From an uncultured Chloroflexia bacterium (GTDB lineage Bacteria > Chloroflexota > Anaerolineae > Anaerolineales > UBA4823), in contig CAWHGE010000017.1 in the NCBI GenBank assembly GCA_963828845.1, forward strand, positions 8,981-72,980: a DNA stretch of 64,000 bases. The letters are read 5' to 3'. The first letter of the stretch is position 1, and each line of letters opens with the position of its first letter. The notes beneath the pieces are model-generated. The model had not been told where the DNA came from and searched no databases. It was given only the letters and a program-made list of their open reading frames with translations. Of the stretch, positions 2,564 through 29,263 are shown piece after piece. The position numbers and the translations under genes are program-made.

Positions 2564-2574
2564 GAGAGTGAAGA

Positions 2575-3489
2575 ATGACTGCACAAAACATTCAACCGGT
2601 TGCACATAGCTTTAGAATAATGCAAACCATGAAAACAAGAGTGCTTACTACACTGGAAATCCTATTGGTATTTGCTGTTCTCATCGCATTGCGCGTATCC
2701 TTTCGTTCAGCAAGTATTGTGCAATGGGAAAAACAAAATCTCGGCTGGTCCTACACCATGATGTTCCTCTTCATTGGCATCATCGTGTTAGTCATACTAC
2801 TGACGCGCCGGAGCTGGGCAGAATACGGCGTTTCGGCAAAGAATTGGCGAACAAACCTGGATATCGGATTTAAAGCCTATCTGATTCGGATCCTCCCAGC
2901 TGTGATTGGGACTTTTGGTCCAGCCTGGTTGGGTTTGAATCTCAATGAGCTCGGTAAGGGGGTCTTCGAGGCCCCGCTGTGGATGATCGCCGTAGCACTG
3001 ATCGTGTGGGTGTTAAATCGCCAAAAGGAAGTTAAATCTGGCCGAGCCAATCTAATTGCCACCCTGCTGTTTTTAATCGTGCCGATTGGAATTGCACTGG
3101 CTGTGGGCAAGTTGAGCCTGGTGATCGTTTCGACGGTCGTCTGGCAGTTCATCTTTTCAGGGTTTGGTGAGGAATTTATCTTTCGCGGTTACTTTCAATC
3201 CCGGCTGAATCAGGCTTTCGGACGACCAGTGCATTTGTTCGGCATCCAGTTCGGAGTTGGTCTGATCATCGCCTCCCTCCTGTTCGGCCTCCTGCATGCT
3301 TTCAATGGATATGATCCCGCCATTGGATTTTCATCCCTTGCATGGGGTTCGGCGATTGGTTCGACTGTAGCGGGGTTGTTCCTCGGTGTGCTGCGCGAGA
3401 AGACCGGTACTTTGCTCGCACCATGCATCGCCCATGGCCTTCCTGATGCAGTGGGAGAGCCGATGAAAATAATTTTTGGTTGGTTTTGA
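2575..3489 (+). CDS. CPBP (Abi/CAAX, Rce1-like) intramembrane protease
   Basis: EEFIFRG, FGLLH, AH motifs; hydrophobic. Confidence 0.9.
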   Translation: MTAQNIQPVAHSFRIMQTMKTRVLTTLEILLVFAVLIALRVSFRSASIVQWEKQNLGWSYTMMFLFIGIIVLVILLTRRSWAEYGVSAKNWRTNLDIGFKAYLIRILPAVIGTFGPAWLGLNLNELGKGVFEAPLWMIAVALIVWVLNRQKEVKSGRANLIATLLFLIVPIGIALAVGKLSLVIVSTVVWQFIFSGFGEEFIFRGYFQSRLNQAFGRPVHLFGIQFGVGLIIASLLFGLLHAFNGYDPAIGFSSLAWGSAIGSTVAGLFLGVLREKTGTLLAPCIAHGLPDAVGEPMKIIFGWF

Positions 3490-3530
3490 AATAACTTATG
3501 AAGGATAAACACGATAAGTGAGGTGATAAG

Positions 3531-3671
3531 ATGGACACAAATGTAATCATTATCACCCAGCTCACCCGCTATTTCAAGGAGACTGTTGCAGTAGATCAGC
3601 TTTCGCTTGAAGTGCACGCGGGAGAGATCTTCGGCTTCCTGGGCCACAACGGCGCCGGCACTGCTGCATGA
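3531..3671 (+). pseudogene. Truncated ABC ATPase N-terminus
   Basis: [46 protein letters not shown]; breaks within Walker A; RBS gaggtg. Confidence 0.8.
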
Positions 3672-4014: not shown

Positions 4015-6144
4015 TTATGGTCCGATATAGCTTGTCCGTGTGGAGGTAAAACCATCGAAATATTCCGCCCCGGATGTACCCGAAGGGACAGTTTGTGGTC
4101 CTAAAAGCACATCTTCAAGCCGGTATCCACCATTGGCAATACCATTGCGGGTTTCCTTGAGCGATCCATCCAGCCATAAGCTGAGCAGACCATCCGTACC
4201 TTTAGCTAGTTGAGGCTGCTTGCCAGGCTATCTCTATTGCATGAGCAGAATTACTCATTGTATACCAGCTGGTGGTCAGTGTTTTTCCATTACCATTCAA
4301 GGATCATGCCACGTACCTGGTAACTACCGGATGCATACTGGAGCTGCAATCGGAAAATCACCACACCTGCGGATGTACGCCCGATGAAGAGGTCCTGAAG
4401 TTTCTTTCTTGGAAGGGCGACACCGTTGGGTGAGAAGTAAAAACGAGCATGATAAGGTGGCTTCAGCAGCAGGTGATGTATCTATGACGTAGATGGATTT
4501 GGTGCTGTTTACCAAAGCTTGCATGCCTTGTGTACCAATCATAGCAGCCTGTCCTGATACACTCAGCCGGCTCCCATCTGTAACGGCTGAAGACCAATGG
4601 CTAAGATCCCCTGATTCAAACCCGTCAGAGAAAATCGTATCTGGCCACAGGAGTAGACGTCGGTGAAGGAGCTGGTGTAGGAGTTGGTGAAGGAGCCGGT
4701 GTGGGAGTTGGCACAGGTGTTGCTGTCGCTGTAGGTAAAGGAGTTGGGGTCACACGGTTGCCAGCAGCCAGCCAATTATATGCTGCCAGAGCATCAAGCA
4801 TGCCATAACCAAAGTCATTATCCGGACCAGTTGAACCCAAGATCAACGGCTGTATTCATCAGAGCTGCAGCTTGTGATTCGGTGGAGAGTTCCGGAAAAG
4901 CGCTGATCAGCAATGCCAGCACACCAGAAACATGCGGAGCTGACATGGATGTACCACTGTGCTTGGGTGTACAAGCCATATAAATCTGTCGTGGTGATGT
5001 TCGCACCTGGGGCAACCAATTCAGGATAGATGCTTGATGATTCACCACAAGCGGAAGGTCCGCGACTGCTATAGGTCTGCAATGCACCAGAATTATCCAC
5101 TGCACCGACCGCGAAAGCTTCGGGATAATTGGCCGGGCTGACACTGGTGGAGGAATTCGGACCATAATTTCCTGCGGCAAACACTGGCAGGATACCCACC
5201 AGACGCAAGGACTTCAGGTCATTCTGGAATTCCAGGTTGCAACCGGGGCTGCCATACGACCATGAGTTGTTGACCACCTGTGGTGCATCGGCCGTGGCGG
5301 GGTTGCCGTCAGGGTCGAGCAACCACTGGAATCCCAGGTGGATTGCCAGTGGCAGTGGCTGTGCCACTATCATTGAAGATCTTCACCGCAATCCACTGGG
5401 CCTGTGGAGCCACTCCAAGTGTGGTTCCAGAGCCATCAGCAGCGACCATCACACCCATGGTCCAGGTACCATGACCGTTCAAATCGGTGGGTGTGGTGGG
5501 GTGTTGGTTGTACGGGTCATACCAGCTGTCACTGCCACCCCGCCAGCGAGCGCTTAGCTCAGGGTGACTGAGATCAACACCGGTATCCATATTGGCGACC
5601 ACAACACCCTGACCGTAATAACCAAGGTCCCACAATGCTGGGGCATTGATGGCTGAAAGATTACCCGCTGGTGCGGCCAGGTTCATCGTCCCAACAGGCA
5701 TGATGTCGGTTGTATCTGGCGTGATGCTTACCACATCCCCTCGGGTGGCAAGGGCCTGGATCACGTCTGCATGTCGCAGTGACTGACAATCCGTTGAAAA
5801 CCCAAAAAGGTATCACCCTGGCAACGCGACCTTGGGCTTGAGTCAGCTTCCAAGACTGACAGAGATCGCCTGCTGTGAGGTTCGAGCGAGGGCTTGTAGA
5901 GCTTCGATCACCACTTGCTGCCGATTTGGCAAGTTCTGCAGAATGCTGGTATCAGGGCGATATTGGTCTTTGAGGGTGACAATGACGGTAACCATTTGAC
6001 CTGGTTGCGAGTTGGCTAATTGAGCTTGCACTTCGGGGGCAATTTTGGCTGATGGATCGCTTGCTGCGCTTCTGGCAGCCTTTGCAATCCCAAATATGCT
6101 CAATGCAAGAACCAAAATAATAATGCCGGGTAATGTTTTTTCAT
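4015..6144 (-). CDS. Secreted S8 (subtilisin/bacillopeptidase F-like) serine peptidase with Pro/Thr linker and C-terminal beta domain; frameshifted
   Basis: Signal peptide, prodomain, catalytic NMDTG, HGTWTMG, GTSMSAPHVSG across fragments; PTPTP linker; ends YFDGFTSTRTSYIGP*. Confidence 0.85.
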
Positions 6145-6195
6145 TTGACTCCGATCGGAATATTATTGATAGCCAATTAGTTAAAAATCGTTGTT

Positions 6196-7048
6196 TTATC
6201 TGACAATAACAGGTTCTACACGCTCACGACCAAAGACAAGGCTGACTTCAGATCCAGCGTGAATCACCTGCTGGGTTGGGAAAAATATGATGAATACCTT
6301 TCCGGCTTTTAACCTGTTTCCATTGTGCGAATGCATATGGGGTGCCAGCACAAGAGATTGTTGATTGACAAGTAAAGCGGCCTGGTTTTGAAGAAGCATA
6401 TGTGCTTTTTCGGGATCAATAATTTTTAACCGCACATCCACAATGCTGTTCATCATGGATGTGGCCACCAGTGATACCTGCACACCATATTGCTCTTCTA
6501 ATTCAGAAAATGATGTTACGGGCGTATCGATCACCTGGTCCAGTGAACCAACATGATATCCAAATGCCTGTGTTACACGCGGTATCCCATCGATAGGTAA
6601 AGGCACTGATTAGCACAAGGATAAGCAAGCCAGTTACCGGCTGGATATAGCGAAGTGGCTGTTGAGCAGTAGCCGGGAGCAATTCACCAGTCAGGAGATT
6701 TTCCACGGGCGCAGGATAAATAGCAGGATGAAAAAGCCTTCCACCGCCATCGCTACAATCCCATAAGGCGTAAACCATTCCTCTACTTCCATGCCCGGCA
6801 TACCCTTGGTCCTGCTCCAGGCATAACCGGCTATCGAGCCAATGGCGATGAACAAACCGAGCATCCACCCCCAGAGCTGCTTGCGATAAATACCATAGGC
6901 GGCAAGCAATGCGCCGACGAAGTTTCCCACGAAGAGATAACCCATATATGCGGCTTCCTCAAATTCGCCTTGGGCGGTCATCAGGTGAAGCAGCCCGATT
7001 TCGAGGATGAGGACGATTGCAAACCATTGAAGTGAATTTAGATTTCAT
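6196..7048 (-). CDS. Membrane protein with C-terminal soluble domain containing HMHSH; frameshifted
   Basis: Fragments 6691-6981, 6503-6868 and 6196-6606 join; several TM helices; C-domain paralogous to 7087-7584. Confidence 0.65.
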
Positions 7049-7086
7049 TTTTATTTCTCCGTATATCAATAATAACTCTCATGGTA

Positions 7087-7584
7087 TTACCTGGCATTGA
7101 TTGGCTCAACCGCGATATTGCCAAACAAAATCGTCACTGGTGTATCATGTTTGATTGCATTACCGGAGTTCGGATAAATGATGAAAAGATTACCCCCGGA
7201 GATGAACTGGATTTCCTGTGATTTTGTATCTTCGGGAGCGCTCAAAACAACTCCCTGCTCAGTATACAAAGTTGGGAAATTTGTTCTTATCAGCTAACAG
7301 CAGTTTCAATTTCTCACCATCCACAATTTTCAAGCGGACATCCACGAAACCACCTGCAGCAGTCACAGCGATAAGATTCACACGCAGACCATATTTTTCT
7401 TCCAGCGTGCCTTGCGAGATTACGACTGTTCCATTCGGAAGGGATGCAGCTTGAAATGCCCTGGATCGCATTGTTTACATATATGGCCGACACAATATAA
7501 GATCGATAGAATAATACCGATGGAAATAAATCTACTGGTTGATTTTTGTGGCACCAGGGTGTGGTTGGCTTTTATCGCTTGCAT
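7087..7584 (-). CDS. Membrane-anchored hypothetical protein; frameshifted
   Basis: N-terminal TM then LEEKYGLRVNLIAVTAAGGFVDVRLKIVD...VTILFGNIAVEPINAR; RBS aggag. Confidence 0.65.
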
Positions 7585-7663
7585 GATTTGTTTTCTCCTG
7601 ATTTTGGGAAGCCGTAGTCTCAGTAGATACAAGGACCTTCCACAATAAACCTGATAATTGCTT

Positions 7664-7701
7664 ATGGCTGGAGGCTCCAATGAATTGAGACCTCCAGCCA
7701 T
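7664..7701 (-). terminator. Stem-loop after third cupredoxin gene
   Basis: atggctggagg...cctccagccat inverted repeat. Confidence 0.55.
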
Positions 7702-7717
7702 TTGACTTAGTTATTGA

Positions 7718-10435
7718 TTATGGAATATCAAATGCATCGATATCCAGGTTGTTGCTGGTTAATCCATGTGCAGTACCATCGAAGTAAACGATCCAGGTAC
7801 CGTTGTTGTAGAACACAACATCCTCGTCCTGAACTGTTCCAAGACCTGGCACATGTTGTATCAGTAGCAAACGAGAGGTAGAAGTGAGTGGTATCAACCC
7901 AAACCAATCCATCCACATTCGCTCCACTGGGGAGAGAATACGGAGATGCAGAGGCATCCACTACACGGGTATAGGAGCTACCACCATTCCAGCGGTAGAT
8001 ATCTGCATCATCGCCTGTACCACCAGCACCGGGGGGGTACATTACCATGTCTGTCGAGAAGTAAATGTGCCTCCGACAATACTGAATGCGTCGAGATCAA
8101 AGCTGGTTGCGTTGTCGAGACCAGGACGCTGTCCATCAAAGAACAGCTGACCAGGTACCCGCGTTGTAGTAGACAATATCTTCATCCTGCGACTGTACCG
8201 AAGCCCGGTAAAGTTGTGTCACCACTGAAGGACATGTAGAAGTGGGTAGCGTCAACCCGATCAAAACCATCCACGTTGGCATTACTGCATGGAATACCGA
8301 TGCGTAGATGGCATCCACCACACGACTGTAGGCTGTTCCGTTCCACAGGTAGATATCTGCATCATCTGCAGTTCCACCCACACCTGGAGGATTGGAATTT
8401 CCAAGCGGTCGAGAAGTACAGCGACTTGGTGATCACCAGGATCGTTGTGCTCATCGCACCCCAATTGCCTGCGGCATCCTTGGCATGGACATAGATGGTA
8501 TGGTTGCCATTGCTGAGGGCACCGATCACCGCCAGCGGGATATCTCCATAGCCTGATTCAGTCGGGCTGTTGAAGCTACCATCTGTAGCAATGAACACGA
8601 AGCCCGTGCCGGTTGTGCCAATCGTATCGAGGAAACCTTCAGCTGCGGCAATGTTGGAGCCACCAGTGGCTACATCACTGAAGTCGGCTGTCACACGCAC
8701 CGCCTGGTACACTGGTGTTGAAGCCTTGACTGCCATTGTTCGGATTGGGCGAAGCAGCGACGTTACTGGTGGTTGGAGCAGCAGTATCTGTCACCTGCAG
8801 GGTAATCGTTGCGACTGCACCCCAATTTCCAAACGCATCCTGGCTGCGCACCGAAACGACATGCGAACCCATGCTCAAACCAGCCGGGATCGTAGCCGTA
8901 AAGCTTCTTACAGATGAATCGGAACCAGCGACGATGTCATGGCGGTATGAGGCACCACCATCCACCCAGTATTCCGCCGCAGTGACGATTACTGTTGCCA
9001 GAGGCGGTGTCATTGCCGGTTGCAGTCAAGGCTACACTCACAGCCCCACTGCTTGGGTTCGGCGTAAGACTCAAACCGGATGTTGATCGGACCAGTCTTA
9101 TCCAGATTGAGCGTGATGGGACGGAAGGCTCCCCAATTCCCGAGAGATATCCTGACCGCGTACATAGATCGTGTGATTTCCAGAGGACAAGGTCTCCGAG
9201 TGTAGCCGCTGGGATCGTACCTGTAACAGATTCTGCAGTTGAGTCAAATGACCGCATCCACTGCGGTCATCGCAGTTGGCATGTTGGCAGTGCTATCGAT
9301 ATAGAACTCTGCTGCGAGTTACAGTTGGAACCACCTGTTGATCCATCAGCTGATGGTAGCATTGACGGTAACATCCACTGAACCGTTGGTCGGGTTCGGT
9401 GATAGGCTTATCGCTGTAACCGTTGGACCGGTGATCTACGGGAGGTGGCGGTGGTAGTTGCGCTCACAGTGAGAAAGGAAAGCATGCCGCCAAAGCTTGC
9501 TTGCCGTGTTATTGCGCAACAGCATATTGGCATCGTATACAGCGAACTTGCTTCCCACAGCGGCCGAGGCAGGGATGGTGACGATGGTATCCAGGGTCTG
9601 CCCGGTGGCGATCGTTTCTGCAACCACCTTGTGTGAGTAGAGATAGGGGCTGCCATCCTGCCCAATGATGGTCTGGGAAAGACCCAGGGTGCTCATGGCA
9701 TGCGCCTGTATACCTGCATTGACATAGCGCAGCAGCACTTTACCACCTGCAGACTACCGTCAAAGGATCCGTGCCAGGATAAGCCTTGCCATTGATCAGG
9801 AAGTACTTCGGGTTGAAATTGCGCATATCGAAGGAGGCCGGAGTGGCGACTGTGTTGAGCGCGGTATCGAGTTCGCTGAGCACCATAACAGTCTTCCTTC
9901 GGCAAAGTGCAGTTGAAGCATCATCATATGCCTAGCCCACGGCTGCAGTTGGGCGAACGATCAAGGCGCCATATAACCCCATGGCCACCTGATGCTGACC
10001 ATTGGGAGTCAGACCTGCTTCGTAGAGGAATGTCCCGGGGCTGCTGGCAGTGAAAGTATAGATTGTACTAGCACCAGCTGCCACACCGGTTGTATCCGGG
10101 ATCATTGCCTGACCCTGGAAGAGCAAGGACGTGGCTTCGGGAAGATCAGTTGTGTAAGGTCACCTGTACACAATCCCCCTCAGTGACATCCAATACAGGA
10201 CCAGGTAGACCAGCGGGATCGGTATCCAGGGCATGAATAGCCCCATATGGTCACTGAGGTCGTGCCATAACAGGGTGGCTGTTCCCGTCTTAGCCCATAA
10301 GTCAATATTGAAGACATGTAGGCGTGCAGGTGGCGGCGTAGGCCACTGATGATTTGAAACCAGCGCCAAACATCGCCATCAGCACTGACAAGTGCCATAC
10401 ATTATTTTAAGTGTATTACGTGTTATTGTTTGCAT
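7718..10435 (-). CDS. Secreted two-domain cupredoxin (MCO-like) protein lacking Cu ligands, with Ig-like repeats and C-terminal DADIY/QDED repeats; frameshifted
   Basis: TSLLFQGQ, PGTFLYEAG..QVAMGLYGALIVRP, YFLINGK, LLRYVNAG; three PNP..AAE..GNWG repeats; two GGT.DDADIY.WNG repeats. Confidence 0.8.
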
Positions 10436-10452
10436 GTTAGTCTCCTTAGCCC

Positions 10453-11752
10453 TTACGGACAAGTGTTGGGCTGAGGTGGATCAATCCTCAGGTAAGTGAT
10501 GGGACCAGACATGGTCTGACCAAAGGCATCCAGCTGGAAGAGGGCATGGTTGTGCGAGATGATGTAGTACTCGCCGCACTGGTTGAGCGTGCTGATGCCA
10601 GGCGGCATGGTTTGCATCTGACCCAAATATGGACTGCCACTGTAGAACATGCCGATGGTCACGTTTACCAGGTCTGGAACGGTGACTGGAACCGGATTTG
10701 ACTGGGCTATAACTCTCCGCGTCATACCATTTGAAGAGCACATCCCAGGTCTGGCCCGGACCGATGTTGACAGCGAATTTCTCGAACGATAGATCTTGAC
10801 CACCAGGACCTTCCAGCGGATATCCATCACGGCCGATCACCAATCCATTTTGCCCGTGGGGGTGGAATGGATATTCCTCCGAACCCACATTGATAAAGCG
10901 TTCCACGGCGGGGTATGGATGGGTGGCTAGCATCGTATGGATAGATGCGTGCCAGAGCGCCATAAGGTTGAGCAGGCAGCCAGGGAGCATAGTTATCGGC
11001 GATGCTATCTGGGAAACCGCGCCCATTGATCAGCCAGTAGCGGGCACGATAGTTGTTCAAGTTATAAGTTACTACCCTGAGTGAGTCCCACTTCCCAGGC
11101 TGCATGCTGGTAAGGGTCAACTTCAGAAAGCAGGGCCAGGAACTCCTCAGTGGGAGTGAATTGGCTGTCTGCCCGGTTATAAACGTAGTCAGCACCCGAG
11201 GCAGGTCGTACGATCAATGCTCCGAACAAACCCATGGGTACTTGTGTTTTGGTATCTGTCCCGCTCTCGTAGATGAACGTGCCGGGTCGTGGAGGCGATG
11301 AAACTATAGGTGACACTGCCACCCGATGGCTGCACTTTTGGTGAGCGAGGTGAGATTCCCACCTCCGATCAAACTCCGGCTGGGCGGGAGCACCATCTGC
11401 CAGGACATCTCTCCTGCCCGGGGAAGATGATCGAAGTGGAGAGACCATAGGGCAGGGAATTTTGTAGAGTAACCGTTACCGTGTCCCCTTCATTGACGCA
11501 CAATACGGGACCTGGATGCTGGAAGCCTGCCGGCTCCATAACTCCACATATACATGGTATTCATGTCTGGCATTTGGATGTAACCCGATTGAGCCGTCAA
11601 GGAAGAAGGCTCGGCTCCAGTAGGTGCAGACGATGCCCGTAGCTGGGTTTGCAGCTTTTGCGGATTGAACTGGTGCCAGTGGGCTCAATGCCAGCAAGCC
11701 CATCACGAGCACCATTACCAACCGCATCCATTTGAATTTTGATAGTATGCAT
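10453..11752 (-). CDS. Secreted two-domain cupredoxin (MCO-like) protein with domain-2 His ligands; frameshifted
   Basis: Signal peptide; SIIFPGQ, PGTFIYESG..MGLFGALIVRP, YWLINGRGFPD, PFHPHG, SHNH. Confidence 0.8.
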
Positions 11753-11770
11753 TTTATATACTCCTTTTGG

Positions 11771-13160
11771 CTATTCCCCGCTAGACCAATTATGTCGTCG
11801 GGGTGCTGGTTTATGTACTGCTGGGCGGGCTAGAGTTCCTGCGGGATATACACGCACTTCGGTGCGCTGCCCTGCTCCCCCGCCTGCAGTCAGGTTGCTG
11901 TCCTGGGTGTAGCGCCGGTTGTACAGGATGTACTTGTCGTAGCTACGTCCTTGTTCATCAATAGCAGTGCCACCGCTAAAAGTTGGGGCTTCAATGATGA
12001 CATCATAGCTTTCACCAGCACCGATCAGGATCGTGTCGGTCATGTAGCTGGTATCGGTGCCGTCGCGGCCCCTCATGTAGAGTGGCATCACGCCCGACCA
12101 CCTTCATCTTGATACCTGCCAGGGTCATCGCCTCTTCGCGGAAGCCAAGGTTGGCAAAACGCAGCAAGACTCTTTCACCTTCATTGCAAGTGACCAGGGA
12201 AGAGTGTGGGTTATATTGCAAATGCTCGTAGTCCCGGATTGGCCACCAGGTCACCATTGCCATCCGTCTGTATGGTCAATGCATGGGTGGAGGCCGCCAG
12301 GTTGATCGGTGAGTTGGGAAGCAGCGTATCGGGATAGACCCGCCCATTGAGCATGCTGAAATCCGCTTTGAACTGACTCCAATCGGATTCCTGGATGTGG
12401 GCATCGTTCCAGTGACCTTCAGCCCAGATTTCGCTCAGGAACAGGGCGTTCTCTCGATCATAACCGGTTGATCCGTCACCATCGTTGTAGGCATACTTGC
12501 CACTTGGATACAACGATGTGTCGCCATTCTGTAACGGGTCGAACAAACACCAGGCTGGTCATGCCCATGGTCACATGTTCCACATCTTCCACGTGGCAGT
12601 GATACATGTAGGTACCAGGATCATGCGGGCGGAAAACATAGGTAAAGAGCTGTCCGACTGGCACAGCGACTGAACCGGTTGGTTCGCCATCAAAGAACGG
12701 GATCACATTGCGGAAGCCATGCCAGTGTAGGGTGTGGGCATCGGTCAGATCAGGGCGTTGTGCCAGACCCAGGTTGGTGAGCTGAACCTTGAGCTCCTGC
12801 TCTTGATCCACCCAAAAGAAGGGTGCATTGTGCTGCGCTTTATTCTTCTGGTTTGCACGCTGGACATCATCCAGGCCGGTAACATTGCGAAAGCCGAAGA
12901 TATACGTGGTAAATGGTGCAGGTGCATATGTATCAGGATGCCATGGCGGGATGGCTGGATCAGGTGGCATATAGAACCATCCATCCGTTCCGGCAAAGAA
13001 TAGATCATAATTACCAGCAGCGCCAACCACCTGTTCTGGCAGCAAGGTCTTGCGCAGGAATTGAGGCATTACACTTGCCCCGGCAACAATGAAGGCTGCG
13101 CCGCCTGCCAGTTTGAGAAAATCACGCCGGTTGATCGATTGCGAGAAGTTGTTTATTCAT
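11771..13160 (-). CDS. Tat-exported two-domain multicopper oxidase-like protein with type-1 Cu site; frameshifted
   Basis: NRRDFLK Tat motif; HTLHWHG and YMYHCHVEDVEHVTMGM. Confidence 0.88.
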
Positions 13161-13185
13161 ATTATTTCTCCTTTGATTGCTTGCT

Positions 13186-13216
13186 GGCTGGAGAGGGGAG
13201 CTCGCCCTCTCCAGCC
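13186..13216 (-). terminator. Intergenic GC stem-loop between giant gene and MCO gene
   Basis: ggctggagaggg/ccctctccagcc; no clear U tract, may be an mRNA stabiliser. Confidence 0.5.
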
Positions 13217-13230
13217 GGTTGCTGATTGTA

Positions 13231-16200
13231 TTAAGGCACTCGTCGGCGCCGATGTCAAAGCCTGCCGCCGATGACGGTCGGGATTGGTTATCGATATCGA
13301 AGAGCGGGTGCGGTTACGCCATTCTTAGCGTTGGCTGCTTGCCGGTAAGTTCACATGGCTGGTGACCCGCTACCACTCAGGTGGTAATCACCCAACCAGG
13401 TAGGGCGGCAGGTCCACCGTCACCATGATGGCACCGATGAAGTTGATATTGGTGCGCCAGGAGGTGAAGCTCAGAGGGATATCAAGTGTAGCCAATCACC
13501 AGAGGATCAGCCAGCTGTTGGATGCACTCCGAGATGACTCCGGGATGCGCACTCGGCTGAAGGACCGAGTTGGTTGGTGACAGCAGGTTGCTTGATGCTA
13601 CCCACCACGCCCATATCCCAGTAGGATCGGTAAGCATCACCTGCGGCGTGATTCCGGTCACCGTATTGGTGCCGCTTGGTACCAGCCCAGTTATCCCAGA
13701 AGATATCGTTGAACAGCAAGGGATTGCTGAAGAACGGGGAACCACCAGGCAAGGTGGACTTGCAGCTGGTCGCTATTTGCACCGGTCGAAAGACCAGCCG
13801 GGGCAGGCAAACCATCGCTGGTAATGGCGGTTGCAGTGGTCTTGTTATTCATGACCGTGTTGTTATAGAAGCGCACATCGGGAGCATCGTCGAGGGCGAC
13901 ACCGCCGCCTTCGTGCATGGAGACGTTGTTGACGATCATGTTGTTGTACACGTTCATGGGGAAGTTGCCCGCCATGAGGAAGCGTAGACCACCACCGTCG
14001 TCTTCAGCCATGTTGGCCTGGATCAGGTTGTTGTAGATATCCACCGGCACCTGAACCTTGCGGTCCACCGGGCTGACCATAGCTCGCAGTGGGATCGGTA
14101 GCCAATTCACCGGCGATGATGATGCCAGCACCTTCATCGTACGAGTGGTTGTAGTAGATGCGGTTATCGTGGATCTTGCCATTGGGGCTGATAGCCGAAG
14201 TGGCTGATGGCACCACCGTATTCAGCTGAGAAGTTACCGCACAGGTCGTTGCTGGCGATCTCGTATCCATCAGCGCCATTGAAGAGACCGATGGCACCTG
14301 CCAGGTTGGTACCACCGTTGGCAAAGATGCGGTTGTTGGCGATGCGCAGGTTCTCGTTATGCTGGTTGGTATCCGGACCAGTCAGGTTGGGTGTACCGAT
14401 GCGGATGGTGCCGTACGAGCCGCCGTTGCTGTCGATCAGGTTGTTGGTGATCTGCAGGTTGCGCGCGTAGGCGTTGGCAAAGATGGCCCCGCCCTGGGTG
14501 ACTACCTGGACTGCCTGGAGAGGTCCGGGGAAACCGCCAAAGATGGCATTGAGGTTGCCCGGAAGTCCCTGCTGGTCGCCACCGCGGATTTCAAAGCCGT
14601 CGATGGAGGCCTTGAAGATTGAACCGAACTGGCGGGCCTGGTTGGGTCCGGTGGTCTGGTTCTGCAGAGGCCAGCACGTAGATCACCTGGCCATCGTTGA
14701 TATCCTGGGAACCATCCCAGGTCAGGCTGCTGATTTTTGTCAGCCAATCCGTCGCCAGGTGTGGTATCACCACCAAAGGCGATGCCATCGATGATCGAGC
14801 CTTGGACGGGTGTGCCATCCGGATACACGCCACCAGGTCCAACGCCTTGCAGCTTGACCGGCGAGTACATGATCAGGTTCTCGTAGTACGCACCGCGTCC
14901 GTTATAGCGTGGGTTGCTGTGATCTACTGCGCCGGGTAGACTACTACCAGCGAGTCTTGACCGGGGAGTGAGGCGGCTGCATCGAGTGCACTCTGGATGG
15001 TGGTGATAAGCATGGCCTGGACCGACTTCGTATACGGTCGGGTTGTAAATGCTGCAGGGCATTTCCACCACCGAAGTTGTCGAAGCGGGCATCGTTCGCT
15101 ACTGAGAAGTTCCAACGAACCGGACGCCGATGCTGCCGCCAGCTTGTGCCAGAGACGATAGGCCAGTAGGGTGTCGGTCCAGTGGTCGTCACATTGACGC
15201 TGCCGATCAGGACTGCCGTTTTTATATACATCGACAGTTCCATCTGCAGAAGCGATCGCACCGAGCTGATCATCCTAGCAGCTAAAGGTCACGGGGAAGG
15301 TGGCTCGCAGTGCTGCGCTGTTGGAATTCTGGCCGCGTCACTTTCGTGCGAACCGCGACAGCGTTGGTTACCATTGTAGGCAACCTCGATCCACGAGGCG
15401 CCGTTGCTGTTCGGGTCTGCCTCCGCTGAACTTGAGCAGCAAGCCTTGCTCAGTCCCGCTTGAGCTCACCTTGGTAAAGGTGAAGTAGGCTTCCTGGTCA
15501 GCGCCGAACGAGGTTCGGGAGCCCACCAGGCATTGCCGGTGCTGCGTACTTGAACGACACCATCGGGGTTGATGCTCGGGAAGTGCTGGATACGGAAGGT
15601 ACCCTGGGTGTTGCCGTCGCCGCCCCAGTTGCTACCCAACCCACCATTGGCACGATTGAAATTGTCCAGTACACTGGTCTGTGGGAAGGTGCCGCTGCAA
15701 GCACGTGGAAAGTCAGGCCATTGACTGTGCTCTTGCCGTTGGCAGCTGTGATCTTGAGCTGGTGCGGACCTGGCACGGTTCCAGCCGGTACGGTTACGTC
15801 AATATGAGTAGCGCTCCAGCTGGTTGTTGGTAGTGCAACACCATCCAAGGTCACCTGACCTGGTGTAGGTCCCAAAGCCCTGACCATCGATGGTAAACGA
15901 ACCTGAGCCGTTCACATAAGGTTGCGAAACTGCAAATAGCTCGGGGGTTATCCCTGCACCATTTGGAGTCACCCAGTAGTGCGGCTGGATCGTTCAGCGT
16001 GCAGACAGCTGGCTTGACTCGTCTGCAAACCCGGGATCTGAACAGCTACGGCCACTGGCGTAGGCGCCAGGTCAGCCGGGAGGGTCAGGCCAGGGAAGGC
16101 TTCGAACTCAGCCGAGATGGTGCGGTATTGAGGGTTGTAGTTCGCATTCCAACGACCCGGAGTACCGGGATCGTTGCCAACGAAGCGATACAGGTTGGCA

Positions 16201-19200
16201 CATACACCGGAAGGTGTTGGACAGCTGATGCGGTTGGTGGAAGGCAGAAGCACATCCCACAGACCGTTGTAATCTGATTCGACTGTGTAGATCAACCGGT
16301 TGGTGTAATCATAGATACCGACCGGAGCGAAAGATACAGGCAACTTCTCGCCATAAGCGATCGATTTGGGGTTGCTGGAGAAGTTGAGATCATCCACGAT
16401 CAAACCCCAGAAGCGGCCTGGAAGCGGAACATCGGTGAACAGGTTGAAACCCGGGGCGATCGACTTGCGATCACTGAGACGGACCAGTTTCATATCGCAT
16501 AGAGGCTTCTGCTTGTCCTTCGTATATCGATCCGCCAATATCAACGAAGGTGGGATTATCGGTGGGTGTAGAAGCGGGAACGGTAACACCAACGGGCAAT
16601 GACCGTTGACTATCGTAACCAGCTCCGACAACTGCTGGATAATTGTCTGTATCCGCTACCTGCGACATCCACCGTATGTAATGGACCAGCACAAGGCGGA
16701 GGTGGAACCTGCGGGACGAACGAATCGCCATTGGCGATGTTGATATCTTCTTCACGGGTCACTTTGTATAATGCGGCATTCGGGTGGACAGCCGCAGCGC
16801 CATATACATCTGCCTCGGTTGGGATTTCGACTTTGACCAGATAATCCCGGTTGGAAGGTAAGGATAGGAAATCGCCAGTTGAACAAGTCTCCAGATGTCG
16901 GATCAAACGCACCGGGAGTGCCATCAGCCAGGAAACAACCATCGCCGAAGCCATAGTTGCCATCCACGCTGGCACCGAAGTTCGGTGCCATCAGACATGG
17001 GACCAAACTGCACACCCATCATGGGGGCTTCCAGGCAGGGTTGGCATTTCCGGGTGTATCTGAACCGAGTGGCAACACCTGCTCATCTACTCCATTGAAC
17101 CAACGGATTGCCGTCCACATTGCGGGCAACACAACCGGTGGGTCGTTCCCAGGTTTCTGAGACATACTGGTTCAACAATGGACCCAGGGCATAGGAACCA
17201 TCTGGATTCAGCTGCATAAATTCCATTCGCATCGCACGGTGCGTCGGGTTACGTCCATCATAGGGGCAAGCTACCGGAGCATACAGGTCGACCGTCAAGC
17301 CCGAAATGCTGGGCTGCCAGTCTTCAATGGCTGCATAAGCAGGATTCAGCTCATTGCGGGTGGTATCGTAACTGATGGTGCCTACGATGCCGCCGTTCGT
17401 TCCAGGAGCATAGGCTTTCACGCCCCAATCCAGGCGACCGCCCAGGCCAATGACCGGATGAACGTTCACATCCACACCCTGGCCGAGTATCGTGGTTTCT
17501 TCGGGCTGGTTATCCGCCTGGTAGGTGATACCGGTGGTCTGGAAGCCATCAGCATAGGCTTCTTCCACCAGCCATTGGGTGATTGGGTAGGCATTTTCCA
17601 TCCAGTAATAACCGTTTGCATCGGTGGTCACCAGGGTTGCGCCGCGGTCCATGATGGAATTCTCACGCGTGCGCATCACAATGGGGAAGTTAGGAATGCC
17701 CGGCTCACCGGCATCCATCTTGCCGTTTTCATTGAGATCATTGAAAACGTGACCTTCGATGGTGGTCCACCAACCTAGCATGGATAATGAACCCAGGTCA
17801 ACAATCTCACCATTTCGAACAGAGACGTTCTGTTCAAGGAAGATATAATCCTGGGGCTCATCCCAAACTCCGAGAACATAATCTCCATCCGGAACATTCG
17901 GGATAGTGAAGTTAACCGGTGGACAACCGGCAGCTTCGTTACAATCGAACTCTCCCATATAAACAGTCTGATCGTTATTGTTGAGATCAGATAAGGAGAC
18001 GAATAAGCGGTGGATTGGATTTACATCCTTGGGTTTTGCACCCAGCAGACCGGCTTCACCGCCGATACCGCCTACGGGAGGGATATAGGCACTCACAGCC
18101 AGTGCAGTACCTTTGATCGTCGCCACTGCCTGGCTGCCATGGTATTCGTGGGTTGGACAAAACCGAAGAAGGTGGCGGGGAAGGGTTCACCTGCCACGAC
18201 GAATTCGGTATCCAGACCAGTGGCACCTTCCATCACCCAGGCATCCCAGTCATGGTTGCCTTCCAGGGTGGTGGTCTGAGCCCAATCGGTGCCCGTCGGG
18301 TCTGACAACGGATAAGGCATAGCGGTTGGGACCAAGGTGCGGGATGATTAATTTGCCCTCAATCACTGCACGTAGCAGAAACTGGTAAGGTTCCGTATCA
18401 GTTGTAGTTGCATCGGCAGGAAGATCATCGCGGAATGGGCAATCGGCCATCGGCATCATCGATGGGTGCGACGATACCGAGATCGACACCACCATCAACC
18501 ACGTAACATTGGCTTACGCAATGAGCCATCACCGCAAACGGGATCGCCATATACATCCGTTGTGACTTCATCAATGTAATCCGCGATGTGGCCTTCAAAA
18601 CCAGCCAAACCGCGTTCAGCGGGTACATCCGGGGCACTATTGGTGGGAGCAACATCTTCAAAAACTTCCGCCTGAATGGTTGCGTCTGGAAGATCATAGG
18701 GCTGCATTTCTACGGTGACATATGGCCAGTTCGCGATCAGCCATGGTACAGTGAAATGTGCACCATCGATCTTGTAATTATCAGCCAGCACCGAGATCAG
18801 ATAACGCCCATCGGGTAGAGTAATACCAGGACCGAAGTCGGTCTCGATCACCCTGAGTGTAGATCGGGCTGGAGCTGGCTACACCGGCAATTGAAACCCA
18901 ATTGCATGAGCCAGGGTAACCAGCATCCTGTGGTGAACATCCAGTGCCAGGTTCAGGACTTCTTTGCTCGGTGGTACCAGTGTTATCCACATTGATGATG
19001 TATTTGAATTGAGTAATTGGATCGCCTTTTGATATCCCATAGGTAGCGCTATCATTCGCGCTGATTACCTTCAATATGAAGGGTATTTGTTTGCCGCTTT
19101 GGCGGGGGTTGCTGTTAAAGAGTTAAGTGGCCCGAGAGCTGTAACAAGCATCACCAGGGTCACCAAAAGCCGGAATAGATTAAAACCTTTATTCGATTTG

Positions 19201-19218
19201 TGAATTCTTACCTTTCAT
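13231..19218 (-). CDS. Giant (~2000 aa) secreted multidomain protein: SdrD-B-like, IPT/TIG, right-handed beta-helix, choice-of-anchor-Q-like tail; heavily frameshifted
   Basis: Signal-like N-terminus; GHVFNDLNENGKMDAGEPGI; GQVTLDGVALPTTSWSATHIDVTVP; TIQSALDAA; NNMIVNNVS/GGG repeats; ends GFDIGADE; no internal RBS/gap seen. Confidence 0.7.
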
Positions 19219-19509
19219 GGATTAGCCTCCTTTGAAATATTGGTTGGATAACTATGATTGATTGAGATTACTCATGAACCGATTAACTCTCCTTTCATGT
19301 GTTAGAAGTAGATATTCATGGCACGATACAACAAATAGTCTTAGGAACTGTTGTTGAGCCTAGTTGGTAATGTGATAACGTGCGTTCAAAAACTTCTTTC
19401 CCCTGTTTAAGGTGCCTATAGGTTACTGGAGAAGCCAGAAGGTGTATACGCACTCTTGTGGCCCATTAAGGAATCAAAAAAGAGCCATTTATTAATGGCT
19501 CTTTTTTGA

Positions 19510-19539
19510 AAAAGGATTAACCCCAGGGTTAATCCTTTT
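19510..19539. terminator. Intrinsic terminator after response regulator
   Basis: aaaaggattaaccc/gggttaatcctttt. Confidence 0.75.
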
Positions 19540-19543
19540 AGTT

Positions 19544-20196
19544 CTATTTGATTAAACCTGCTTGTTGGGCATATAGGATCGCTGCTCGTGCGGTTCTTCA
19601 GCCTTAACTTGGCCAGAATATTATGTATATGATGTTTAACTGTGTTCACGGATAGAAAATAGTTTGGTCGCGATTTCCCCATTCGACGCACCCAGGGCTA
19701 TCTCCCGTAAAATTTCAATCTCACGCTGACTGAGAACACTCTGTGTATTGCAAACCTCACTGGAGACTCCATTATATGGTGCTGTGAGAATTCCTCCAGG
19801 AGACGCATGGTCATTGATCCCGAGATGGCTGCTTCACCTTTTTCGATTGATTTTAACGAGCTCACCAATTTCGCTCACCGGCACATTCTTTAACAGATAT
19901 CCCTTGGCACCACTCCGGATGGCTGCAATCAACTTATCATCCGCGTCATACATGGTCAGGAAGACAATCTTACATCCGGGTTGCTCTGCTAAGATAGCTG
20001 CAGAAGCTTCAGCACCATCACCATCCGGCAAGCTGAAATCCATCAGGATTAATTCGGGTCGGAGTTTACTGGCTAAATATATTGCTTCATGAACCGATCC
20101 GGCCTGACCGACAACATTAAAATATTTATCTGCTTTGAGTAAACTGACCAAACCTTCACGAAATAACACATGATCATCAACGACGAGTACTTTCAC
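19544..20196 (-). CDS. NarL/LuxR-family response regulator; frameshifted
   Basis: VLVVDDH, ILMD, GYLLK receiver; LSVNTVKHHIHNILAKL HTH. Confidence 0.9.
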
Positions 20197-20220
20197 ACTT
20201 CACCTCTCTTATAAAACTCT

Positions 20221-21620
20221 TCACTCATCAGACGCAATTAATGGCAAGCAGGAGCATGACTTCTGTACCCTGCCCTGGGGTGCTGTTGATTTCTGCATTT
20301 TCCTCCAAGAGATTGAATCCGTTCATCAATAATGTGAAGTCCATAATGACCATCATAGCGCAGTTTCATCTGAGCTAAAACCCCGTCCATCATCCCAAAT
20401 ATTCACCTTAAGGTGTGTATCCGTCCAGGATAAGTGTACCTTTGCGTGGCTGGCACCAGAATGTTTTTCGATATTGTACAGAGACTCTTTAAACGCGTAA
20501 AGGAGCTGTTTTAAATGGTTTGGTGGTATGGAACGTGGCAGACCTTCTTCATCGATATTTACGGAAATCCCGGCACGTTTGGCAATAATTTGCGTGTGTG
20601 CTTTGAATAGTTCATTGATCTGATGGTCACTTCCATGATGCAGGATGACCAGGGTATTCCTCACCAGTTCGTATGATTCATTGGCAAGCTCGCGCAGATG
20701 TTCGAGCTCATTTTTCAATGTGCGCAATGAATACTTCTCACCTGCAGTTAGTATCTGATCAAGTTTGAGATGCAAATATCCCAGATTCTGACCTAGTGTA
20801 TCATGCAGGTCACGGGCGATTTCCAAGCGTTCGTTACTGGCTGCTTGGCAACTTCTATGGCGTGCTGTTCTTGTCTTTGGTTAGCTGCACTCAAACCAAT
20901 GGCAATATCATCTGCGGTATTACTTAACAGTTGAGCATGTTCATTTGTTAAATACTTGTGTTTCGGCAGGATCATATAAAGCATCCCTATTGGCAGATCC
21001 CCATAATTAATAGAGATGTGATAACACTGCCGCTTTCCATCTCTATCTTCGCTAATTTTGTCGCAATCAACCAGGTGGACATTGGGAGCGATAGTGACTG
21101 ATATCATCTGTACAACAGGCATCTCTGGATATGGTTTTGACTTGGATTTCAATATTCTCAGATGGAGCTATCCAGCTCTGCTTCTGTGACGAAATTATCA
21201 TTATCCTGGTCAAAGATCAGTAGCGATGTTGCTGACACCGGTAATATGGAGGATGGATATTGGAGTACCCTGGTTACAACATCCTCCCAATTTTTCGCAG
21301 AAATCAATTGCATGCTGAGGTTATGCCGGGCATCCAATATCATGATGGTCTGATTCTTGGCAATCACTGCTTTGATGGCCAGCTTCAACCATTACTGCTG
21401 TGACGGCGATTAATGTATAGTACATCGCAATTTCTTTAAAAAAATATAAACTATTGTCGGTAAGAAAGTCAGGATGCTCAATAATTTCGAATATACCCAA
21501 GAAGATTGTGGTCAAATAGCAAAATAACGATCCGCCAACGAATGAGAAAATTCTGTATCTTCCCAACAAGAGGGCGAAATTCATTAATCCTGGAGCGTGA
21601 CGAAAGTACCATTTCCTCAC
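20221..21620 (-). CDS. NarX-like HisKA_3 sensor histidine kinase with TM and GAF-like region; frameshifted
   Basis: EIARDLHDTLGQ, ESLYNIEKHS, DDGRGF. Confidence 0.85.
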
Positions 21621-21942
21621 CTAATTTGTCCGTATTGCGAAGATTTTACAACAGATATGCAATTATTCTATTCGAATCACATTAGTATTCATTAATAACA
21701 GATTTTTTAGGAAAGAGCATATTCCACATTATTCACACTAACAAATGATTATGGATTTTTACCCTTTACGAATAGAGGAATAATTTAGTACCGCTGGTGG
21801 ATGTAATTTGCGAACTCTGGCAATCATGATCTGATAACACGAGGCAATAACTAATCACTATCGTAACTGCATGAGTTCTCCTTCCGGGCAGAACTGCAGG
21901 CTATTTTTTTCTTTGATCTTTTACATCACCTTCCTAGCAAAT

Positions 21943-22825
21943 TTATCCCACAATGGCGAGGTTGTGGTGCCGTAGACTGTTTATCACCGGACCTGGTGCC
22001 TCTCCAAGCTGAAAGTGGTAAAGGCGCATCGTCCTGAACAGCGAGTTCAATCGGGCGCAGCCAGGGAAAGCGGGCCAGGCGTGGCTCTGGCCGGTCGAAG
22101 AATCCCCACTCGTCGAGCAAACGAATGCCATCGCCCCAGCCTTCGAGCTTCTGACCGCGCCAGATTCCCCAATGGACACGGAGAACAACCTTTGTGGTGG
22201 ACATTTGGAGGTTGTGCACCCAGACATGGAGTGGCGAATAGGCATCGAAGACCAGCTCCGCGCCTGGAAAACGGTCACGCAACGTCAGCACCAATGACTT
22301 GACCTGCGCTTCTTTGAAGTACATGAAAACACCTTCGGCCAAGAACAGGAAGGGTCGCTGGCGATGTGCGCTCACAGTGTCCAGCCAGGCATCCTCGAGT
22401 ATTGAACAGCCCAACAGGCGATGACGCCCCACTTCGTCGCTGATATACTTACGGCGCAGCTCGATGACCTCTGGTAAATCCAGGTCGTACCACACCACCT
22501 GCTCATTACGCTCGGCGACGCGCTCGAAGCGTGAATCGAGACCGCACCCGATGTGAACTACAACCGCCTCCGGGTGGCGCCTCAGGAACTCCCGTGCATA
22601 GCGGTCGAATTCCCGGTTGCGCAGGATTATCACTAACTTATTCGCCTCACTCAGTGGGATCTTTCTGATCTGGGCGAAGTCGTAGCTCATCTGTGCGACC
22701 AGCGCCACAGCCTTATCGTCTTTAATCAAGGCGTCTGGGCGCTGCGATTCCTCCGCCCGCAGGTAAAGTGTGACGAGCAGCGATTCAGACACACTACTCA
22801 GTCCTTGATCAGTATTCTCAAACAT
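21943..22825 (-). CDS. Class I SAM-dependent methyltransferase (LCM/TcmP-like); frameshift near 3' end
   Basis: VVHIGCGLDSR, WYDLDLPEVI, FLAEGVFMY. Confidence 0.9.
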
Positions 22826-22835
22826 ACCGCCCTCC

Positions 22836-23657
22836 TTAGAGTTGATAGTGAAAAACGCCTATCCCCGTGGAGAGGAATGGAACCAGGCGCACCTTCAGAG
22901 CACGGCGAAGACGATGCTCAGGGTACTGGAAGGGGAACCGCTCATCGAGCAGATGGATGCCATCACTCCATCCCTCGAGGTTCTGGGGATGTTTCAGAGC
23001 CCAGTGCAAGGGGGCGCCGATTCTGGTGCGGGCGACCTTGATATTGTGCGACCAGCGGAGGAACGGTGAATAGGCATCGAAGACCAGCTCCGCGCCAGGG
23101 AAACAATCATGCAGCATCAGCACCAGCGACTTGACCTGCGCACCTTCGAAGTACATGAAAACACCTTCGGCCAAAAACAGGAAGGGGCGCTGGTGATGTA
23201 CGCTTACTGCCTGCAGCCAGGCATCCTCGAATACCGAGCATGCCAGCAGATGATAGTGCTCCTTCTCATCACCAATGAACTTACGGCGTAGCTCAATGAC
23301 TTCCGGCAAATCCAGGTCGTACCACTCCACATGACCATTGCGCTCCGCGACGCGCTCAAAGCGTGTGTCAAGGCCGCACCCGATGTGGAGCACGACCACC
23401 TCCGGGTGGCGCTCCAGAAAATCCTGGGCGAAGCGGTCGAAATCCTGGGTTTTCAGGATCACAACGAGCCGGGTGGAATCTTCGGTCAGGGCTGTCGTCT
23501 TGTGCAAGGCCTCCTGATCCAATTGGCGGACCAGCGCTTCGGCTCGCTCGTCTTTGATCAGGGCATCTGGGCGTTGTGATTCGATGGCTCGGATGTAGAG
23601 CGTGATGAGCGACGTTTCAGGTACACCGCTCAGAGTTGGGGATTTTATTTCAGGCAT
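22836..23657 (-). CDS. Class I SAM-dependent methyltransferase (LCM/TcmP-like), tandem paralog
   Basis: VLHIGCGLDTR, WYDLDLPEVI, FLAEGVFMY. Confidence 0.9.
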   Translation of the reverse strand: MPEIKSPTLSGVPETSLITLYIRAIESQRPDALIKDERAEALVRQLDQEALHKTTALTEDSTRLVVILKTQDFDRFAQDFLERHPEVVVLHIGCGLDTRFERVAERNGHVEWYDLDLPEVIELRRKFIGDEKEHYHLLACSVFEDAWLQAVSVHHQRPFLFLAEGVFMYFEGAQVKSLVLMLHDCFPGAELVFDAYSPFLRWSHNIKVARTRIGAPLHWALKHPQNLEGWSDGIHLLDERFPFQYPEHRLRRALKVRLVPFLSTGIGVFHYQL

Positions 23658-23680
23658 AGCTAACCTCTACCGAAGCTCCT

Positions 23681-24193
23681 TTACGACAATTTCTCCAGCT
23701 TTTTTTTCATGGGCTGATAAATCAATCCATAACCATCAAAACTCCAGCCGTTGCGAACACCGGTGGATTTTCTATAACCAACAGCTTCATAAAACGGGAC
23801 CGCATAAAGGGTAGCTGCAAGGTGGATGACTCTCGAACCTCGACTTGCACATTCCTGCTCGCAGCGTTCCACCAATCTTCGGCCGATACCCTGACGATGG
23901 TGATCCTCACGAACAAAAAGACTTTGCAGACGAGCTGGTCTGCACCTGAGCACGCCGACAATTTCGTCACCATCTTCAGCGATAAAAATCATTTCAGCTC
24001 TTAATACCCGAGTAATCGCATCACGGTGAGTGAGCTCAGTTGAACCGGCGTATCGAAATGGTCCCAAGAGCTTTTCCTGTTCTTCGGGTGAGGCAAAGCC
24101 AAGATTGAACTTGCGATAAGTCTCGGCGATGAGCATGCCAACTGATTGTGCATCGGTTTTCTCATCGTAGGCGCGAATAATAACCATCCCCAA
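23681..24193 (-). CDS. GNAT family N-acetyltransferase
   Basis: LFVREDHHRQGIGRRL motif A; AVPFYEAVGY. Confidence 0.9.
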   Translation of the reverse strand: MGMVIIRAYDEKTDAQSVGMLIAETYRKFNLGFASPEEQEKLLGPFRYAGSTELTHRDAITRVLRAEMIFIAEDGDEIVGVLRCRPARLQSLFVREDHHRQGIGRRLVERCEQECASRGSRVIHLAATLYAVPFYEAVGYRKSTGVRNGWSFDGYGLIYQPMKKKLEKLS

Positions 24194-24226
24194 AAGTCCC
24201 TCCTATGAGGCGTTACTTACCATTGA

Positions 24227-24967: not shown

Positions 24968-24976
24968 CGCTTCCTC

Positions 24977-29251: not shown

Positions 29252-29263
29252 AGTGCCTCCTTA

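Follow-up and report, generated by a model that had tools for sequence, protein, structure and literature searches.

Multicopper oxidases (MCOs) are textbook enzymes, with laccase, CueO and ceruloplasmin among them. In their type C two-domain members, such as the metagenomic mgLAC (2ZWN) and the blue copper oxidase of Nitrosomonas europaea (3G5W), a single gene encodes a homotrimer that has three complete clusters, and a trinuclear cluster of such homotrimers is placed where domain 1 of one chain meets domain 2 of its neighbour. Ceruloplasmin and hephaestin are single polypeptides that form a six-cupredoxin ring, with several type-1 copper sites and a single trinuclear cluster at one interface. 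The step from symmetric two-domain trimers to asymmetric six-domain enzymes with one O2-reducing cluster has reportedly been argued from sequence only. Among the multi-subunit bacterial MCOs of the cell or spore surface, Mnx of Bacillus (MnxG, MnxE and MnxF) combines a complete six-domain oxidase, MnxG, with small partners that are not oxidase paralogues. According to the respective reports, Nmar_1354 of Nitrosopumilus maritimus (9CCK) is a two-domain oxidase forming an alpha-alpha-alpha' 'heterotrimer' (PMC11761707), and IOX of Iodidimonas is a secreted MCO purified as two or more proteins (IoxA and IoxC), from a co-oriented cluster with SCO1/SenC genes (PMC9415286). Here we describe a nine-gene cassette in a 64,000-nucleotide stretch of DNA from an uncultured Chloroflexia bacterium (hereafter, the window: G000:C17:8981-72980, where G000 is the assembly GCA_963828845.1, of 2.99 Mb in 26 contigs). 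With a probability that we put at about 0.6, this conserved secreted cassette assembles one heterotrimeric two-domain MCO from three paralogous genes, and the roughly 112 frame breaks that interrupt it in the window are assembly errors.

Using the longest fragment of the giant gene of the cassette as query, we searched 41 genomes including G000, with E ≤ 2.2e-67 as the limit for a strong match. The giant gene was open in four genomes of the same genus (G020, G014, G008 and G010, with 1966-2006 aa) and in G038, from another family of the order (1884 aa). These five intact genomes present an identical gene order: sensor histidine kinase, response regulator, giant secreted protein, three MCO paralogues (MCO1, MCO2 and MCO3), two small membrane proteins (sm1 and sm2) and an S8 protease. 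The exception is G038, which has one sm2-like gene and no separate sm1, and whose contig ends inside the S8 protease gene. MCO1 measures 435-468 aa in these genomes, MCO2 426-437 aa and MCO3 898-991 aa; in G020, the genes of MCO1 and MCO2 are separated by 28 nt and those of MCO2 and MCO3 overlap by 10 nt. Pfam recognised Cu-oxidase_3/_2/Cu-oxidase on MCO1 and Cu-oxidase_3 on MCO2 and MCO3 of G020, and the NCBIfam and Pfam scans gave the giant protein a 'choice-of-anchor Q' end besides SdrD_B and TIG; no Pfam or NCBIfam family was found on the sm1 and sm2 proteins of this genome. The kinase, with HisKA_3 and HATPase_c, stands beside a regulator with REC and GerE domains, which makes a two-component system of the NarL/LuxR type. 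Regarding the protease, it is a subtilase with the Asp-His-Ser triad in S8 order and a Pfam S8 match at E 8.7e-51 on the G020 protein. The nearest NCBIfam model was the mycosin TIGR03921, with 131 bits and a cut-off of 279, and we rejected this identity. We assigned signal and transmembrane (TM) segments by visual inspection of the intact proteins of G020; a TAT_signal Pfam match, the twin arginines in MCO1 and the TM helix modelled for sm1 support these calls.

The copper ligands are divided between two of the three paralogues. Domain 1 of MCO1 from G020 contains the motifs HTIHWHG and HCHVEDVEHVTMGM, which are of the L3 and L4 types by comparison with three-domain laccases. It holds a complete type-1 copper site (His, Cys, His and Met) and four of the eight histidines of the trinuclear cluster. 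The other four (HPH and HNH) are found in domain 2 of MCO2, within the motifs FHPHG and SHNHA, of the L1 and L2 types by the same comparison, where an Asn replaces the type-1 Cys. MCO3 has neither cluster nor type-1 ligands. This split is the same in 14 aligned paralogues from five genomes. In order to follow it further, we scanned species-representative genomes with an MCO2 alignment, which gave 340 candidate stretches, 254 of them encoding a relative. The counts that follow refer to the best 80 of these 254 MCO2 relatives, with 10-kb flanks (30 loci from Chloroflexota, 42 from Actinomycetota, 7 from Proteobacteria and 1 unlabelled, by record title). Residues H143, H146, H148, H188, C189, H190, H196, M199 and M201 of MCO1 are invariant in 79 of 79 sequences, and no conserved HxH follows its HCH, that is, in domain 2, across the 80-locus set. 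Regarding MCO2, H293 is present in 79 of 80 sequences, and H295, H397, N398 and H399 in all 80. HCH was found in none of the 80 MCO2 and none of the 76 MCO3 sequences, and 48 of these 76 have no HxH anywhere.

The best PDB matches of the MCO1 profile were 2ZWN (E 6.7e-16) and 3G5W (E 3.2e-15), with both domains covered, and in the hidden Markov model alignment to 2ZWN the domain-2 motif HAMHSHG of this enzyme stands opposite AAMTLAG in MCO1. The MCO2 profile gave Nmar_1354 (9CCK) as its best PDB match, with E 3e-11. Like type C enzymes, the paralogues have two cupredoxin domains, and MCO1, the only one of the three to do so, has the type-1 site and the HxxHxH and HCH motifs in domain 1. Unlike in type C enzymes, the eight cluster histidines are not on one polypeptide: MCO1 has four, MCO2 four and MCO3 none, so a ring of the three could hold at most one cluster. 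Since the cluster spans domain 1 and domain 2 of neighbouring chains, neither MCO1 nor MCO2 alone can complete it, while an MCO1-MCO2 interface can. To judge from these residues, the product is likely an obligate heterotrimeric oxidase from three genes with one active site.

An MCO1-MCO2-MCO3 ring would be expected to resemble ceruloplasmin and hephaestin in its six cupredoxin domains and its single cluster at one interface, a likeness that beyond the superfamily is by description. It would differ from them in being made of three polypeptides with one type-1 site. Mnx resembles the cassette as a multi-subunit surface oxidase and departs from it in the make-up of its subunits. In contrast to the cassette, the three chains of Nmar_1354 come from one gene and differ only by the loss of an extra cupredoxin domain, with a full cluster per interface (PMC11761707). 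As for IOX, the report on it assigns all four copper-binding regions to IoxA and describes no ligand split, giant protein or subtilase (PMC9415286). In the full-text literature that we searched, which excludes most subscription journals, we found no two-domain oxidase described as having split ligands or subunits from different genes.

We then counted the other genes of the cassette in the 80 loci by assigning open reading frames (ORFs) with BLASTP to the nine G020 proteins, and considered only those loci whose contig reaches far enough. An earlier, sequence-only reading of the window, made by a model without database searches, had proposed one regulated cell-surface system built around an extracellular copper-enzyme complex, with a putative scaffold, anchor and maturation protease of its own, and had named lack of synteny elsewhere as one observation that would speak against it. 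This objection fails, as the core is conserved elsewhere: MCO1 was present in 77/77 reaching loci, the giant protein in 71/71, MCO3 in 73/73, a protein of the sm1 or sm2 type in 69/72 and the S8 protease in 69/70. This six-gene core (giant, MCO1, MCO2, MCO3, small membrane protein and S8 protease) is arranged alike in the Chloroflexota, the Actinomycetota and the Proteobacteria. Upstream, and on the same strand, the regulator is found in 17/19 loci from Chloroflexota, 2/39 from Actinomycetota and 0/5 from Proteobacteria, and the kinase in 15/19, 0/39 and 0/5, respectively. Kinase and regulator are a Chloroflexota-specific addition to the cassette, and the proposal of one regulated system holds for this phylum but not for the other two.

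Clustering of the remaining ORFs revealed a CopC-CopD fusion inside the cassette in 29/37 loci from Actinomycetota and 6/27 from Chloroflexota, and SCO1/SenC in 5/7 from Proteobacteria and 5/27 from Chloroflexota. Together with the ligand split between MCO1 and MCO2, these genes strengthen the idea of a copper-enzyme complex. KdpD and an OmpR-type regulator recur downstream in the loci from Actinomycetota, which we take as shared flanking synteny. In a quick maximum-likelihood tree of the 80 MCO2 sequences, Actinomycetota fall on one side of a branch with an SH-like approximate likelihood ratio (SH-aLRT) support of 99, and Proteobacteria form one group (100) among unresolved Chloroflexota, with short branches between phyla; the tree is unrooted and we claim no direction of transfer. 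Some genomes carry two whole copies of the cassette on different contigs (L035 and L037 in one metagenome-assembled genome, L076 and L085 in another). Isolates bearing the cassette include Humibacillus xanthopallidus DSM 21776, Cryobacterium algoricola MDB2-B, Xylanimonas sp. McL0601, Nocardioides sp. YIM 152588, Actinotalea sp. M2MS4P-6 and Cellulomonas sp. ICMP 17802. These results mark the cassette as a genuine secreted system, strongly conserved and with a copper oxidase at its centre.

In 55 full-length ORFs from three phyla, the giant protein has 55-70% identity to its G020 counterpart over almost the whole length, with the exception of residues 1141-1380, a level not usually seen in surface proteins rich in repeats. 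The 598 C-terminal residues were modelled as a right-handed beta-helix, with a predicted local distance difference test score (pLDDT) of 86.6 and a predicted template modelling score (pTM) of 0.90. The nearest Foldseek matches were LnbX (lacto-N-biosidase), AlgE4 (mannuronan epimerase) and PL6 lyases, with E from 3e-5 to 1e-3 and TM-scores of only 0.3-0.4, so the model offers a possible lead towards glycan binding and not a family assignment. Regarding sm1, the model presents one TM helix and a beta-sandwich (pLDDT 89), which is consistent with a role as membrane tether. It gave no Foldseek match at E ≤ 0.001, and its best VIA-align Z of 6.6 was tied with many unrelated beta-sandwiches, leaving no specific structural relative in these comparisons. 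A PCuAC-like Cu(I) chaperone was considered for sm1 and sm2 and rejected: no His, Cys or Met is conserved in 92 aligned sequences, and the fold matches of sm1 to PCuAC are weak (Z 5.2) and tied with many unrelated sandwiches. In the ESM Atlas, the giant protein falls in unnamed clusters and sm2 only in unnamed clusters of Chloroflexota. Pfam scans with relaxed settings, run on the giant protein, sm1 and sm2 and on the tails of MCO3 and S8, gave no further match above the cut-offs.

The C-terminus of MCO3 from G020 contains a twofold repeat module of about 115 aa that matches no Pfam or NCBIfam family. We detected this module in 61/80 loci: MCO3 carries it in 58, the giant protein in 42 and the S8 protease in 25, and in 21 loci all three do. 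The 7 proteobacterial loci lack it, as do 11/30 of those from Chloroflexota. Its shuffling among three secreted proteins suggests that it might serve as a common address or in mutual docking. The G020 locus also has two strong hairpins, at L018 8537-8576 and 14227-14257, with 18 and 13 pairs, in the gaps after the giant gene and after the MCO3 gene, and the one after MCO3 has a counterpart at about 7666-7700 of the window (by eye). Such hairpins could set different transcript levels within the cassette. A scan of the same locus gave 17 promoter-like sites, with 21.2 expected, and 26 terminator-like sites, with 17.0 +/- 4.4 expected.

We propose that the trinuclear cluster forms at the interface between MCO1 domain 1 and MCO2 domain 2, which would be the sole interface able to hold one. 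Electrons from the substrate would enter at the type-1 copper of MCO1 and cross the His-Cys-His triad to the shared cluster, where O2 would be reduced to water, and MCO3 would close the six-domain ring. The Ig-like domains and repeat module of MCO3 may position the enzyme next to the protease and the giant protein, both of which bear the same module in many genomes. The twin arginines are nearly invariant in MCO1, and the leaders of MCO2 and MCO3 from G020 look Sec-like by eye; with MCO1 predicted to leave via Tat and its partners via Sec, assembly and copper loading would take place outside the membrane. In other lineages, CopC-CopD or SCO1 could aid copper loading, and in Chloroflexota alone the cassette would be governed by the NarL-type two-component system next to it. 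Our guess for the substrate is a polymer-bound compound or a metal at the cell surface.

One could argue that the three MCO-like proteins act separately or as homo-oligomers; MCO1 might, for instance, be a blue-copper electron carrier and MCO2 a copper protein with a mononuclear or binuclear site. The difference in predicted export between MCO1 and its partners would fit such a division of labour, and copper-less cupredoxin paralogues with non-catalytic roles are known (SufI/FtsP). We nonetheless regard separate action as unlikely, given that both histidine half-sets are conserved in 79-80 of 79-80 loci from three phyla, that they sit precisely on those faces of the domains which are in contact in homotrimeric relatives, and that the genes of MCO1, MCO2 and MCO3, tightly spaced or overlapping, were never apart in the examined loci. 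A copper-resistance or homeostasis module of the CopA/PcoA type, in which Cu(I) would be oxidised outside the cell, could account for the weak NCBIfam similarity to copper_res_A (TIGR01480), far below the cut-off, and for the CopC-CopD and SCO1 genes within the cassette in other lineages. However, CopCD and SCO1 serve cuproenzyme maturation too, the two-component system is of the NarL/HisKA_3 type and not OmpR-type like CopRS and CusRS, and the beta-helix protein of about 2000 aa and the S8 protease, conserved like the oxidase genes, have no place in known cop/pco systems, all of which makes such a module improbable.

We also weighed the state of the genes in the window. Between 3.6 and 21.7 kb, the longest ORF has 367 aa (table 11) and the minus strand breaks up into short pieces that alternate between frames. 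The alignment with G020, at 82% DNA identity, presents 239 gaps, 174 of them of one base, and at least 112 frame changes, counted only when the offset persists for at least 24 aligned bases; 9 are intergenic (for the genes, see Table 1) and every one of the nine genes has a density of 3.5-7.9 per kb. We rejected an alternative genetic code, as the breaks are frame changes and not in-frame stops. That all nine genes are broken, that the broken stretch has the extent of the cassette and abuts on its left an ABC ATPase gene that breaks off at its Walker A motif, and that the cassette is patchy among relatives (strong matches in 8/41 genomes including G000) would all suit a decaying pseudogene island, with the frame shifts real in the DNA and the system dead in the organism; the flanks are also unlike those in G020, so gain and loss do occur. 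However, a long-decayed island would be expected to show relaxed codon structure, deletion bias (long-decayed bacterial pseudogenes are deletion-biased) and large losses, and we saw none of these. Mismatches between the window and G020 amount to 10.6, 6.7 and 30.7% at codon positions 1, 2 and 3, concentrated on the third position as between the intact orthologues of G014 and G020 (16.8, 11.1 and 44.8%). Among the one-base gaps, insertions in G000 exceed deletions by 133 to 41, with 137 of the 174 outside homopolymers. In tblastn searches with the G020 proteins each of the nine genes was covered over 91-100%, and the copper-ligand and protease triad motifs are all still readable. Besides, unrelated genes elsewhere in G000 are split likewise: this assembly, with a completeness of 61.58% and 61% of its bases in ORFs of at least 200 aa, contains 39 stretches of more than 3.5 kb without any such ORF, and two of these ORF-poor stretches beyond the cassette (G000:C20:132001-146000 and G000:C19:58001-68000) carry ordinary genes split between frames (ROK, sugar ABC transporter, alpha-amylases, HIT and MFS). 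On these patterns, the breaks in the window are very probably uncorrected long-read consensus errors, and we give real decay a low probability. A low-coverage, strain-variable island is a possible cause of the noisy patch. The assembly has patches of uncorrected indels, and gene calls there should not count as pseudogenes.

Several points weigh against the combined reading of a heterotrimeric oxidase behind an erroneous consensus. Tat export of MCO1 next to Sec export of its partners, if the predicted routes are right, is unusual within one enzyme. As the 80 loci are the best of 254 and include many close relatives, the counts make them look more independent than they are. The roles given to the giant protein, sm1/sm2 and the protease come from fold and neighbourhood only, with weak beta-helix matches (TM-scores as above). 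Five public wetland-metagenome runs contained 5-7% of the sampled words, and four gave contigs at an 85% likeness threshold; these belong to relatives at 85-95% identity and not to the strain of the window, so the errors are inferred and not seen in reads. Six of the 12 best-supported indel sites in the run contigs coincide with indels specific to G000 relative to G020, which fits error and decay alike. Finally, the coincidence of the noisy stretch with the cassette, next to a truncated ABC ATPase gene, fits a decaying or badly joined island too.

The gene coordinates in Table 1 were obtained by mapping the G020 orthologues back to the window through the DNA alignment, and Pfam was run on the 69 stop-to-stop fragments of its minus strand. 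From 21.6 down to 4.0 kb, the fragments matched HisKA_3/HATPase_c, Response_reg, GerE, SdrD_B, TIG, Beta_helix/NosD (weak matches, below the Pfam cut-offs), Cu-oxidase_3/_2 with a TAT signal, a second Cu-oxidase_3, Big_13 and Peptidase_S8, with GerE split over two frames and Peptidase_S8 over three fragments and frames. These are the families and the order that the sequence-only reading had described, all on the minus strand, and its end points match the S8 stop and the kinase start. It made no mention of frame changes; none of the genes is open in the window. The protein of about 2000 aa with SdrD-B, IPT and beta-helix parts has its domains here, yet only as pieces in alternating frames, and its three cupredoxins are three two-domain MCO paralogues, one of them of about 900-975 aa. 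The description was therefore right in content and wrong on gene state, and its interpretation is partly supported. What it lacked is the most notable feature of the locus: the oxidase is probably, as its ligand residues indicate, an obligate three-gene heteromer with one active site.

Table 1. Genes of the cassette and flanking features in the window, with frame changes relative to G020 and motifs readable in the window
Feature	Position	Strand	Frame changes	Motifs or modules	Basis
HK, sensor histidine kinase, HisKA_3 + HATPase_c, NarX/LiaS-like	20193-21612	-	~8	H-box RDLHD 20800-20814	Pfam on fragment 20356-20880; 470-aa intact G020 orthologue
RR, NarL/LuxR-type response regulator, REC + GerE	19535-20196	-	~4		Pfam, G020 mapping
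Giant secreted protein, SdrD_B + IPT/TIG + C-terminal right-handed beta-helix of ~600 aa (predicted); ~1980 aa intact	13231-19218	-	~38		
MCO1, TAT-exported (predicted) two-domain multicopper-oxidase paralogue	11781-13160	-	~6	HTLHWHG 12716-12736; HCHVEDVEHVTMGM 12560-12601	TAT_signal match, motifs
MCO2, Sec-type (predicted) two-domain multicopper-oxidase paralogue	10453-11752	-	~10	FHPH 10856-10867; SHNHA 10543-10557	Motifs
MCO3, ligand-less two-domain paralogue + Ig-like domains + twofold C-terminal repeat module	7718-10462	-	~23	Repeat 7793-8063 / 8151-8418	
sm1, single-pass membrane protein with extracytoplasmic beta-sandwich domain (predicted)	7087-7584	-	2		
sm2, sm1 paralogue, ~four N-terminal TM segments (by eye), same C-terminal domain	6196-7048	-	3		
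S8 subtilase	4016-6165	-	~9	DTGVD 5573-5587; HGTW 5462-5473; GTSMSAP 4935-4955	Pfam S8 on three fragments
Left flank: ABC ATPase, ABC-2 permease, Rce1-like CAAX protease; paralogue array	757-3489	+			
ABC-transporter ATPase stub, first 49 codons, cut at Walker A motif	3522-3671	+			
Right flank: two tandem LCM-type methyltransferases (~74% DNA identity mutually), GNAT acetyltransferase, two further CAAX proteases	21926-26050	-			

The ABC ATPase stub has 86% DNA identity to the start of a full paralogue at G000:C17:7234-7351, and nothing between the stub and the start of the cassette is homologous to the rest of the ATPase. Its edge marks either the true boundary of an inserted island or a place where the assembly was wrongly joined. 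A cassette-free junction was not found in relatives when the left flank was searched in 23 genomes and two orthologous regions were examined. The region around the cassette is rearranged between close relatives; in G001 (L102 17-1029), the homologue of window positions 28600-29599 is inverted and directly adjoins the first ABC ATPase. Two further relatives, G015 (G015:C14:46082-47133) and G022 (G022:C7:370578-371678), have giant genes that are interrupted by in-frame stops or by changes of frame, so frame-broken copies are not unique to G000, be it through assembly error or real decay.

The conservation of the cassette argues for a defined extracellular function in soil, wetland and sludge bacteria. 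More tentatively, and with somewhat less than even confidence, the oxidase may be a living intermediate between homotrimeric two-domain enzymes and those of the ceruloplasmin type. The ring, with its single site across two subunits, would then be the catalytic head of a six-gene surface machine with a glycan-binding beta-helix protein of about 2000 aa and a dedicated subtilase, spread over three phyla and acting on an extracellular polymer or metal as no known oxidase system does. If this is true, a natural enzyme with one cluster across two gene products and a copper-less third paralogue would make the step from symmetric trimers to asymmetric six-domain oxidases testable at the bench.

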